In this document: one piece after another, positions 2,814 to 24,537 of the stretch
Layout of the letters: each line of letters begins with the position of its first letter
Numbering within the stretch: position 1 is the first letter of the stretch
NCBI GenBank assembly: GCA_007694095.1
Contig: RECI01000207.1
Location: 3,217 to 67,216 of the forward strand
Length of the DNA: 64,000 nt
Source: Balneolaceae bacterium
GTDB lineage: Bacteria; Bacteroidota; Rhodothermia; Balneolales; Balneolaceae
Direction: 5' to 3'
Translations under genes and position numbers: made by a program
The notes under the pieces: generated by a model
Seen by the model: only the letters and a program-made list of their open reading frames with translations
Told to the model about the DNA's origin: nothing
Databases searched by the model: none

Positions 2814-4049
2814 TTAAAATGAAAACAACTCACGGTTTTTTGAGTAGTTTTTCTTGATGTAGTCGTCAAGCATTTTCCTGAATTCTGCTCCTATATTATC
2901 ACCCCGAAGTGTTGAATGGTGCTCACCGTCGATATATACCGGTGCTTTAGGCTCTTCAAAAGTACCGGGCAAAGAAATACCGATATTTGCATGACGCGAT
3001 TCCCCGGGGCCGTTTACAACACATCCCATCACGGCTACATCCATCTCTTCCACACCTGGGTACATTTCTCTCCAGATCGGCATCATTTCTACGACATAGT
3101 TTTGAATTTCGTCAGCAAGTTCCTGGAAATAGGTGCTTTTGGTGCGTCCACAGCCAGGACAGGCAGTTACCTGAGGGATAAAGCTTCGTATGCCAAGTGA
3201 TTGCAAAATTTGCTGGCAAATGCGTACCTCCTCTGCCCTGTCGGCACCGGGCATTGGTGTAAGTGACACCCGGATGGTATCCCCGATTCCTTTTTGAAGA
3301 AGAACGGCAAGGGCAACTGAACTGGCAACGGTACCCTTCATGCCCATTCCGGCTTCCGTTAATCCCAGGTGAAGTGCATAGGGTACAACATCAGCAATTC
3401 TCTGGTATACATTGATCAGATCCTGAACACCGCTCATTTTGCAGCTCACGATAATTTTATCCGGCGGCAACCCTACATCCTCAGCCAGGGCAGTTGATCT
3501 CCGTGCGCTTTCAACCATTGTATCAAGCATCACTTCTTTGGCTGATTTTGGATGCGAAAGGGCATTATTGGCATCCATATATTGTGCCAAAAGCTGCTGA
3601 TCGAGTGAACCCCAGTTCACTCCGATACGAACCGGTTTGTCGTATCTAATTGCCTGTTCAACAATGGTGCAGAAGTTTTCGTCCCTTGCTTTGGTACCGG
3701 TATTTCCGGGATTAATCCTGAATTTGGCGAGCGATTTTGCCATATCAGGGTATTTCGTCAGGAGCAGATGGCCATTGTAATGAAAATCTCCAATAACAGG
3801 TACGGTAACCCCCCTGTTCAACAATTTTTCTTTGATATATGGTACAGCCTTAGCTGCCGAATCATTATTTACGGTTATCCTGACCAACTCAGACCCGGCC
3901 TGATTCAGGTGATCAATCTGGTCAACGGTTTCATCAATATCGGCTGTGTCTGTGTTCGTCATCGACTGAACAACAATTGGATTGTCACCACCTACAACAA
4001 CTTCACCAATGGTTACGGGAATGGATTTTCTTCGGGATATAGTGATCAT
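2814..4049 (-). CDS. ispG: (E)-4-hydroxy-3-methylbut-2-enyl-diphosphate synthase
   Basis: [58 protein letters not shown] and [10 protein letters not shown] motifs. Confidence 0.97.
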
Positions 4050-4081
4050 TTTTTGAATTTTATTTAAATGAAAATATTAAG

Positions 4082-4528
4082 AATCTGAAGCACCAAATCT
4101 CAAGCACCAAATCTCAAACGATCTTAGACTTATCTATTTTGTGTTTCCTAAAATTGCTGAAAAAATTAGTTTCAATTCTTCTGCCTCAACAGATAACGAT
4201 GTTATTTCATTTTGCAGATTGCGATTTGATTCGAATAACAAATCTAACCAGTATTTTGATTCCTTTGATTCTTTCCTGCATATTTTAATTCGATACCGGA
4301 AGTCTTTTTTACTTAAAGCTTCATTTGCTTCGATATAATTTGCTCCAATTGATCCAGATGAACGAATCAATTGTTTACAATCTTCAACGTTTATGAGTGT
4401 TAGTTTTATTTGTTTAACCAGTAACCGGCAATTTTTCGCAAAAATAAATGTACGCTCTTCCAGATCATAGTTCCCATTTCTCATCTTGTTTGTATTTCTG
4501 AATGTTTGACATTTGGTGCTTGATATTT
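4082..4528. mobile_element. Four-helix-bundle (IVS-like) cassette bounded by heptamer-register inverted repeats
   Basis: AAATCTCAAGCACCAAATCTCAAAC (4095-4119) versus the reverse complement of 4504-4528 (AAATATCAAGCACCAAATGTCAAAC), 23/25 identical, enclosing one ORF. Mobility is inferred; no transposase is present. Confidence 0.55.
4134..4484 (-). CDS. Four helix bundle protein (23S rRNA IVS-protein / Avd-like fold family)
   Basis: DLEERTFIFA, QLIRSSGSIGANYIEANE, KDFRYRIKICRKESKESKYWL, EAEELKLIFSAI. Confidence 0.92.
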   Translation of the reverse strand: MRNGNYDLEERTFIFAKNCRLLVKQIKLTLINVEDCKQLIRSSGSIGANYIEANEALSKKDFRYRIKICRKESKESKYWLDLLFESNRNLQNEITSLSVEAEELKLIFSAILGNTK

Positions 4529-4537
4529 GTTTTTTTC

Positions 4538-5410
4538 TTAGTTTCTCTTGCTTAGTTCAAACAGTTTTCTTTTCTCTTCTGCAGTGAGGCCATCGTAACC
4601 CTCTCTTGATATTTTTTCGAGGATTTTATCCAGTTCTTCCTGGCCGCCCTTTTCATCAATCACTTCTACATCGCTCACGGAATACATATTTTTATTTTTG
4701 GCCCTTTTCTTTTCCTTTTTTGGTGTTTCTTTCCATAATCTTTCCAGTGGCCGAACATATTTTGAAAGATCATGGCCACCGTAGTGAGCTTTTATTATCA
4801 AATAACCAATACCGGCACCTCCCAGGTGAACAAGCCTCGCAACACCATCACCTGCCCCTATGAATAAAACATCAAAAACTATCAGGCCGGCAACCACAAA
4901 ACGGGCTTCAATAGGTGGCAAAAAGATCAGCATGATAGGAGCCCTGGGGAACATATAGGCAAAAGCAACCATCACCCCGAAAACAGCGCCTGAGGCACCG
5001 ATCACTAAATTGGTTCCATATAGAAATGAAAAAGCGATATGGAAAAATGCCCCTCCTATCCCTGCACCAAAAAACAGCACTGCAAAGCTTCTTGGCCCGA
5101 TCGATTCTTCGACCGAACGGCCCATCCACCATAACCAAAGCATATTGAACAGCAGGTGGAACCCTCCTCCATGCAGAAACATATAGGTAACGAATCTCCA
5201 TGGTTGTGTAATTGATTTCCAAAGTGAAGGATCAAATGCCAGGTATTGAACAAAATGCCGGTTAATGCTCTGACCGCCAATTTGGATGTTGCCAATAACA
5301 ACCTGCAGGATAAAAATAATCACATTTATCGCGATGATTGTCCGGATTACCGGTGGAATCCTCATGAAACCACGTTTAAATGCGCTGCCAAAAGACTCTT
5401 GCTGATACAT
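4538..5410 (-). CDS. Rhomboid intramembrane serine protease with a soluble C-terminal extension
   Basis: QPWRFVTYMFLH, HLLFNMLWLWWMG, GASGA, VHLGG; C-terminal ELDKILEKISREGYDGLTAEEKRKL. Confidence 0.92.
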   Translation of the reverse strand: MYQQESFGSAFKRGFMRIPPVIRTIIAINVIIFILQVVIGNIQIGGQSINRHFVQYLAFDPSLWKSITQPWRFVTYMFLHGGGFHLLFNMLWLWWMGRSVEESIGPRSFAVLFFGAGIGGAFFHIAFSFLYGTNLVIGASGAVFGVMVAFAYMFPRAPIMLIFLPPIEARFVVAGLIVFDVLFIGAGDGVARLVHLGGAGIGYLIIKAHYGGHDLSKYVRPLERLWKETPKKEKKRAKNKNMYSVSDVEVIDEKGGQEELDKILEKISREGYDGLTAEEKRKLFELSKRN

Positions 5411-5442: not shown

Positions 5443-6075
5443 TTAATAGTACTGGCTGTTTTCGCTTTTAAGCCCCCAATATTTAATCAGCAGAAAGCCG
5501 ATCACCATACCTCCAAGGTGTGCAAAATGGGCAATTCCGCTGTCGGGACGCATGATTCCGGAGAAAAGCTCAATTGCACCAAATATAGCGACAAAATATT
5601 TTGCCTTGATGGGAATAGGTGGTATCAGTAAAATGATATACCTGTCAGGGAACATCATGCCGAACGCAATCAAGATCCCAAAAACCGCACCTGAAGCTCC
5701 GACGGTTGGCGCTCCTGTACCGCTGATCCACATATGCAGTAATGCCGCCCCAATTCCGGTTAAAAAATAGTAAATCGTAAATCGCTTTGTACCCCAGTAG
5801 TTTTCAATCCCCTGACCAAATATCCAAAGAGCAAAAAGATTGAATAATACGTGACCAAAACCTGCATGCAAAAACATATAGGTTATCAATTGCCACGGTG
5901 CAAACATTCCTGAACCAATTGGCCACAGAGCACCATATTGAATCAGAAAGTTACCCATCACAGGATTTGTGAGAGCAAAAAATACGAGAAGATTAACAAT
6001 CAGCAGATGTTTTACCGCCGGTGGAAAAATGGAAAAACTTGTATTGGGTGAATAATTATCGCCTTGGTAATTCAA
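5443..6075 (-). CDS. Rhomboid intramembrane serine protease
   Basis: PWQLITYMFLH, HVLFNLFALWIFG, GASGA, AHFAHLGG; TTG start overlaps the upstream TGA. Confidence 0.93.
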   Translation of the reverse strand: MNYQGDNYSPNTSFSIFPPAVKHLLIVNLLVFFALTNPVMGNFLIQYGALWPIGSGMFAPWQLITYMFLHAGFGHVLFNLFALWIFGQGIENYWGTKRFTIYYFLTGIGAALLHMWISGTGAPTVGASGAVFGILIAFGMMFPDRYIILLIPPIPIKAKYFVAIFGAIELFSGIMRPDSGIAHFAHLGGMVIGFLLIKYWGLKSENSQYY

Positions 6076-24083: not shown

Positions 24084-24120
24084 TAACTTTTAAATTTATA
24101 ATCTGACCAAAAATGGTAAA

Positions 24121-24260
24121 AAATTCAAATTTCAAGCACCAAATTTCAAACAATTATTACCCACAATTCAAGCCTCAACGTTCCGAAAAAATCAAATAAG
24201 AAATGATATCAACTTTTTGGAATTTGTGATTTTTAAAAATTCCGGTTTATCCGGGTTAGG
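24121..24260. repeat. ORF-less relic of the heptamer-IR element plus a short CCGG-rich repeat
   Basis: AAATTTCAAGCACCAAATTTCAAAC (24127-24151) is 23/25 identical to 4095-4119; TTGGAATTTGTGATTT follows about 65 bp later, then CCGGTTTATCCGGGTTAGG. Confidence 0.6.
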
Positions 24261-24537
24261 TAATTGTAGAATATAATACTTGCTGCTGATGCGTTAGAGT
24301 CGGGCATCAAATTATTACCTGCTGAGCAGCATGTCTCAGCTTTACCGGCAGCAAAAGAATGTAAATATTTACTCATATCACAATTGATTTTTGCAGAGTT
24401 TAACAGAAATATTTACTGTTGAGGAAACGTTCAGCGTTAATCTGCGTTTATCTTTTAGATTGGCACAATGATTTGTGATTTTGTATAATCTTTGGTGCTA
24501 AAAAATCGTTAAAACGAATAATCATCGAAAAATAAGA

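Follow-up and report, generated by a model that had tools for sequence, protein, structure and literature searches.

We analyzed a window of 64,000 nucleotides of a Balneolaceae bacterium (assembly GCA_007694095.1, contig RECI01000207.1, positions 3,217 to 67,216 of the forward strand), to which all coordinates below refer unless a contig is named. At the locus of interest, four genes lie on the minus strand, namely two rhomboid genes (6075..5443 and 5410..4538), an ORF of 116 aa (4484..4134), and ispG/gcpE (4049..2814). The second rhomboid gene encodes a rhomboid protease with a C-terminal DUF6576 (Pfam Rhomboid, 6.4e-29; DUF6576, 8.5e-10), and the downstream gene matched Pfam GcpE with an E-value of 2.6e-113. 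The 116-aa ORF matched both PF05635 (E-value of 5.8e-13, 49.4 bits against a cut-off of 33.8) and TIGR02436 (E-value of 2.4e-17, 63.1 bits against a cut-off of 24), the family first found inside the intervening sequences (IVS) of ribosomal RNA. The AlphaFold model of this protein is a confident four-helix bundle (4HB) with a pLDDT of 94.3 and helices at residues 8-25, 30-54, 59-86, and 88-115. In the Foldseek search, the best structural matches were BT_0352 (2RLD) and Xcc0516 (2GSC), each listed with chains A-E (TM of 0.75-0.83), followed by Avd, the accessory protein of diversity-generating retroelements (DGRs), alone and within the DGR ribonucleoprotein (4DWL and 8UB7; TM of 0.69-0.72). The protein is basic (pI of 9.0) and bears the motif RxxxSxxxNxxE noted for the family (PMC3936711), as R41, S45, N49, and E52 lie in QLIRSSGSIGANYIEANE, and the latter three residues are invariant in 34 members of the clade described below. 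PADLOC and PHROGs gave no hit.

The ORF is bracketed by an inverted repeat. The two arms, 4094-4119 and 4504-4529, are 26 nt long, 92% complementary (24 of 26 positions), and 384 nt apart. The 5' arm on the sense strand (4504..4529) reads CAAATATCAAGCACCAAATGTCAAAC and begins 8 nt after the stop codon of the rhomboid gene; its heptamers are of the class nAAAtnn, with one AAGCACC unit and an inner end AAAC. The 3' arm on the sense strand (4082..4119) reads GTTTGAGATTTGGTGCTTGAGATTTGGTGCTTCAGATT, comprises about 5 heptamers, and ends 33 nt before the ATG of ispG. This low-coordinate arm is a tandem 14-mer, that is, alternating AAGCACC/AAATCTC heptamers. Altogether, the cassette (4050..4537) fills the entire spacer of 488 nt between the rhomboid gene and ispG, in which neither a terminator-like site nor an excess of promoters was found. 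The local alignment of the upstream flank against the reverse complement of the downstream flank scored 42, while 1,000 dinucleotide shuffles gave 17.4±2.3 with a maximum of 33, and the 99th percentile of mismatched flanks from other loci was 30. The same 692 nt were found with 0-1 differences in four other, independent metagenome assemblies, and the cassette is thus not an assembly artefact. The earlier note described heptamer-built inverted repeats with 23/25 identity around this gene, and that description proved correct, with only the trivial difference from the 24/26 given above. Low-complexity, AT-rich spacers can give spurious repeats, but the reading that an ordinary small gene happens to lie between chance or terminator-type hairpin halves is very unlikely, as it is contradicted by the shuffles, by the lack of a terminator-like site, and by the recurrence of the design at most paralogues and across phyla (see below).

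The genome under study (G000) possesses four TIGR02436 genes that are only 24-33% identical to each other, and each of them is bracketed by inverted arrays of different units: GGATGCT, GGTTTGA/GGTTCAA, CCGAATNA (a complete hairpin on each side), and AAGCACC/AAATCTC. In 61 genomes of Balneolaceae (G000-G060), the copy number of the family ranged from 0 to 19. Of the 33 loci sampled in Balneolaceae, 26 exceeded the 95th percentile and 23 the 99th percentile of a control that pairs the flanks of different loci. Period 7 was the best period in 19 of 23 arms, and the median length of the arms was 28.5 nt, corresponding to 4.1 units.

The relatives of the 116-aa protein with 56-70% identity were found in Balneolaceae, Flavobacteriia, Bacteroidales, Deltaproteobacteria, Gammaproteobacteria, Planctomycetota, Verrucomicrobiota, Patescibacteria, Omnitrophota, Cloacimonadota, Calditrichota, and others, and this clade carries nAAAtnn arms in more than 15 phyla. 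The arms in this clade are again 7-periodic (44 of 49 arms) and share a single profile with A frequencies of 0.87, 0.85, and 0.67 at positions 2-4, while the other positions vary from cassette to cassette. An AAGCAC unit recurs upstream in 20 of 57 independent contexts and never as its reverse complement, and the arrays often end in AAAC next to the gene. In contrast, the other clades in Balneolaceae use nAGnnnt. Protein identity and the similarity of the heptamer profiles correlated with one another (Spearman of 0.64 over all pairs and 0.45 within the other clades), and 0 of 500 Mantel permutations reached either value. Thus, the arms travel with the gene, and we rejected the idea that the gene inserts into the loop of a pre-existing hairpin. 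A periodic conserved core is not what a stem needs if pairing is its only role, and points to a factor that reads every seventh position.

We next examined the history at this site. The order of the rhomboid gene followed by ispG was seen in 28 of 30 related loci, in which the spacer was 9-36 nt (13 loci), 74-102 nt (8 loci), or 157-216 nt (4 loci). Orthologous cassettes with homologous arms were found at the same site in three other species of Balneolaceae, namely those represented by the loci L065/L075 (rhomboid 71% and 4HB protein 70% identical), L067/L076 (84% and 66%), and L077 (79% and 62%, the 4HB gene being interrupted by a stop codon). In the rhomboid phylogeny, these species and the two genomes of the same genus formed a clade with support of 89/92, albeit its internal order was unresolved. 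Within this clade, the genome G038 (locus L007 on contig C3) has an empty spacer of 74 nt, which holds two TAACTGA units 14 nt apart, TAACTGA being the heptamer reported as abundant direct repeats in Beggiatoaceae, cyanobacteria, and some Bacteroidetes (PMC4679880). On the other hand, the genome G058, a sister species (locus L006 on contig C57), holds a different 4HB gene with at least two frameshifts in a spacer of 715 nt, flanked by three upstream copies and one downstream copy of a 45-nt unit that is itself a hairpin (GTTGACAA...TTGTCAAC) and is not built of heptamers. None of the 27 genomes outside the clade has a gene at this site, but one of them, G041 of another genus (locus L031 on contig C17), possesses a gene-less hairpin of GCTCCAN heptamers, with arms of about 37 and 30 nt and a loop of about 60 nt, in a spacer of 216 nt. 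The most parsimonious reading is a single insertion in the ancestor of a genus-level clade, followed by vertical descent with loss, replacement, and decay. The comparison with the orthologues gave a dN of 0.24-0.37 with saturated dS; dN/dS could thus only be bounded, but is far below 1, and the protein is under purifying selection. The arms of the three orthologues have decayed (scores of 21-26 against 42), while two of the three retain an intact ORF.

Filled, empty, and differently filled alleles therefore exist at this site, and paralogues bear analogous flanks; fixation of the gene at this locus and the lack of such flanks around paralogues, which had been set beforehand as observations against the note's reading, were not what we observed.

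In Balneolaceae, the clade was detected in 15 of 61 genomes, each with a single match, and occupies at least 6 different contexts among 12 genomes. Among the 80 named loci, 12 share rpsP-rimM-[4HB]-trmN6 and 8 share DUF1599-[4HB]-membrane protein, both in Flavobacteriia, while about 50 others are singletons. A 72%-identical relative with CAAAT-type arms lies between the cox4-like and cox2 genes of a cytochrome oxidase operon (loci L068-L074), and was seen on 19 Logan metagenome contigs from one study. After collapsing shared contexts, both neighbours were co-directional with the gene at 39 loci and antisense at none, while five loci were (+,-) and three were (-,+). In the other Balneolaceae clades, the corresponding counts were 17 and 10; as 10 of 27 cassettes lie antisense to both neighbours there, read-through in sense orientation is not a general requirement. 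Those clades also have a longer leader (median of 75 nt against 24 nt), which leaves room for a promoter of their own. No rRNA was found next to any of 20 clade loci scanned with Rfam.

The rimM-trmN6 spacer was examined in the 30 Flavobacterium species closest to one carrier (loci L155-L184). The cassette was present in 2 of the 30, and 16 of the 28 gene-less spacers contained a 7- or 8-periodic array, against 6 of 150 shuffles. The spacer is hypervariable, nearly every array being the species' own, and many of the gene-less heptamer arrays are not hairpins. Between two species with RimM proteins 99% identical, homology stops exactly at the stop codon of rimM and resumes at the ATG of trmN6; one species has the cassette of 589 nt and the other has 144 nt with unrelated arrays. 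Thus, whole spacers are exchanged, and no target duplication is visible.

The note proposed that the repeats would pair in the polycistronic transcript and loop out the ORF, so that this could be an RNA-level intervening sequence or a transposase-free mobile unit. This interpretation is only partly supported. In its favor, the 491-nt sense RNA is predicted to fold with the bracketing stem in both the MFE and centroid structures (z = -2.63), neither a terminator nor an excess of promoters is present inside, both neighbours of the clade's gene are co-directional with it at 39 loci and antisense at none, the insert is discrete in an otherwise tight junction, and the architecture matches the Coxiella 23S IVS. 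However, G·U-type pairs were not favored over A·C-type pairs among the arm mismatches (14 vs 20 in the family sample and 55 vs 64 in the clade), although an excess would be expected if pairing in the sense RNA were what maintains the arms, and the arms decay in old copies. Covariation between the arms among orthologues gave no usable signal, as group A keeps the same AAATTCC unit and the arms of this site's group are too decayed. There is also no sign of recent mobility, as there is one copy of the clade per genome, the nearest relative is 72% identical, and no target duplication is visible.

Heptamer arrays are abundant in the genome under study. TRF found period 7 to be the commonest period, with 480 arrays against 86 for period 6. 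About 50 inverted pairs of arrays with loops of 17-1469 nt exist (e.g., C22:2320-2450, C287:23851-24080, and C132:1999-2179), of which the four 4HB genes are the only recognisable cargo, and the largest family (AAAAGTG, about 20 hairpins) has no cognate 4HB gene in this genome. C7:24117-24404 is a gene-less, degenerate second copy of another 4HB cassette (C323:17330-17930), with the same (GGATGCT)n arms, the same 90-nt leader, and the same first codons (MSYK), after which it diverges; this is a pair of copies within one genome that do share arms. The arm core of the cassette under study, GCACCAAATTTCAAAC, occurs 83 times in the genome, 29 of them in full copies of a dispersed, modular element of about 190 nt (e.g., 24085-24275, or C62:27301-27491 on the contig of the window), which was not found in the 60 other Balneolaceae genomes, including the two of the same genus, and is missing from three genomes that carry the orthologous cassette. 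This element has a left arm of the same class as that of the cassette (AAGCACC-AAATTTC-AAAC), a conserved loop of about 65 nt, a right arm of (GGAATTT)n, and an optional GC-rich hairpin module, with neither an Rfam match nor an orientation bias. Its restriction to this genome weakens the idea that it is mobilised by the cassette. The idea that RAYT-like transposases explain the heptamer hairpins was also rejected: of the five RAYT-like Y1 transposase genes (PF01797; C125:4712-5056, C287:21717-22061, C236:14323-14664, C77:18872-19213, and C132:4689-4898), two are bracketed by long GC-rich inverted repeats of their own (44 and about 108 nt), which are not heptamer arrays, and none lies next to a 4HB gene.

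Across the 61 Balneolaceae genomes, the number of GAGT-phased arrays rises with the number of TIGR02436 genes, with a Spearman of 0.63, or 0.46 after controlling for genome size. The 17 genomes without the gene have a median of 2 such arrays (maximum of 7), against a median of 26.5 in the 44 genomes with it. AAAT-phased arrays away from the cassette occurred in 10 of 15 genomes with the gene of this clade and in 9 of 46 without it (Fisher p = 0.0012). These counts use overlapping windows and are not corrected for phylogeny, there are clear exceptions (G041 and G047 with 14 and 11 AAAT arrays, respectively, but without the clade gene), and a general tolerance of some genomes for repeats would give the same trend.

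We tentatively regard the locus as an IVS-type gene cassette, in which one 4HB gene and two inverted arrays of about 4-5 heptamers are inherited and transferred as one unit. The analysis itself establishes that arms and gene belong together, that the cassette fills the spacer between two co-directional genes in sense orientation without a terminator, that every insert at this site lies within one genus-level clade, and that the protein is under purifying selection. What we infer, from sequence and by analogy alone, is that the gene is transcribed by read-through from the rhomboid gene, that the arms form a 26-bp duplex in that transcript, a plausible substrate of RNase III as demonstrated for the Coxiella 23S IVS, and that cleavage would release the 4HB message and separate the neighbouring cistrons without polarity, which would explain why such cassettes are tolerated in operons and in rRNA. 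More speculatively, the (probably pentameric) protein may recognise the conserved 2-3-nt core that recurs every 7 nt, and this pairing of protein and array, rather than RNA pairing as such, would be what keeps the arms and underlies spread. The arms are 4.1-4.9 units long, and the match of five subunits to 4-5 heptamers per arm is suggestive but only an inference.

A close rival, albeit one we consider doubtful, is a DNA-level mobile or formerly mobile element, in which the arms are terminal inverted repeats bound at both ends by the cassette's own 4HB oligomer or by a host factor, movement uses host recombination or replication enzymes, and any RNA stem is incidental. The lack of G·U bias, the 7-nt recurrence of a conserved core together with the AAGCAC unit, the 6 or more sites within Balneolaceae and about 50 further contexts across phyla, the gene-less copy of the C323 cassette, the replacement of the whole spacer in Flavobacterium, and the co-occurrence of arrays and genes fit this view. 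On the other hand, the protein has no catalytic domain, no transposase or integrase gene lies next to the cassette, neither target-site duplications nor several near-identical copies were found, cassettes stay at one site over genus-to-family depth, and the RAYT-like genes have their own non-heptamer repeats. A host regulatory module is less likely still. In this view, the 4HB protein would bind heptamer arrays in many transcripts in the manner of TRAP or CsrA, its own arms would be an autoregulatory operator, and the cassette form would reflect horizontal transfer of regulator plus operator. Purifying selection, the enrichment of arrays in genomes carrying the genes, and the frequent position of gene-less arrays just after stop codons and before start codons of co-directional genes are consistent with it, and TAACTGA arrays have been read this way (PMC4679880). 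However, the gene is dispensable, as sister species lack it or carry it broken, each cassette has its own heptamer variant, the AAAAGTG family has no cognate gene, and the association of AAAT arrays with the clade gene has the strong exceptions given above. Finally, a broader and doubtful hypothesis is not excluded, in which the 4HB proteins are sequence-specific binders of heptamer arrays, one subunit of a pentamer per 7-nt unit, and each protein with its arms forms a transposase-free, self-propagating cassette. The same system would then have seeded the ORF-bearing IVSs of rRNA genes and would produce much of the long-noted excess of heptanucleotide repeats in bacterial genomes, in the way RAYTs produce REPs.

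In the literature searched, we found no description of this class outside rRNA, although one paper noted such genes between cmr3 and cmr2 and read them as cas-associated (PMC3936711); members of this family annotated as 'cas-associated' or 'operon' genes may simply be inserted cassettes. Three old puzzles meet at this locus, namely where the ORF-bearing IVSs of 23S rRNA come from, what the thousands of PF05635/Avd-like proteins outside DGRs do, and why 7-nt tandem repeats are the commonest long simple repeats in bacteria. The cassette shows that the IVS design is not tied to rRNA, and the heritable, horizontally spread unit of gene and arms, together with the clade-specific heptamer core, names a concrete candidate ligand for the protein.

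The cassette can be compared with several known systems. Avd shares the predicted fold and the Pfam family, and is a small basic protein that works bound to nucleic acid, but the sequence identity is only about 10%, no pair of template and variable repeats was seen, and reverse transcriptase genes (PF00078) were found only on contigs C306 and C133, not on that of the window. In REP/REPIN sequences with their RAYT transposase, a single gene is likewise flanked by inverted copies of a short repeat, and gene and repeats co-occur at the genome level. The gene-less, dispersed occurrence of the repeat in the same genome may also be shared, with the arm core occurring 83 times here, but 29 of these lie in the element that is missing from three genomes with the orthologous cassette. 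However, the 4HB protein is not a Y1 (HUH) transposase and has no recognisable catalytic motif, every cassette has its own heptamer variant, and the RAYT-like genes of this genome carry different, GC-rich repeats. The heptanucleotide tandem repeats of bacteria (STRR of cyanobacteria, TAACTGA arrays, and GGGNATC arrays) are 7-nt arrays of about 4 units that lie between co-directional genes, are patchily distributed, and are unexplained (PMC4679880; PMC4692102), but they are described as direct arrays without an enclosed gene and have not been linked to PF05635. Integron gene cassettes are promoterless ORFs in sense orientation with imperfect inverted repeats built of 7-nt boxes, and the inner ends AAAC...GTTT seen here resemble the AAC/GTT core of attC, but the arms here bracket the ORF instead of following it, and there is neither a cassette array nor an integrase gene next to the cassette. 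The closest published parallel is the ORF-bearing IVS of 23S rRNA (Coxiella burnetii S23p IVS; Leptospira). The Coxiella IVS comprises a PF05635 ORF of about 120 aa inside an element of roughly 430-490 nt, terminal inverted repeats forming a stem of about 26-28 bp (28 bp in Coxiella) with RNase III cuts mapped in vitro, and tandem GACAGAT heptamers in the arm next to the start codon, is sporadically distributed, and has been proposed to be a selfish or mobile element (PMC4990558). The cassette here shares the enclosing stem as a prediction, with RNase III cutting inferred only by analogy, but it sits in the spacer of a protein-coding gene cluster instead of helix 25 or 45 of 23S rRNA, and its ORF is under purifying selection, whereas the Coxiella ORF is described as decaying.
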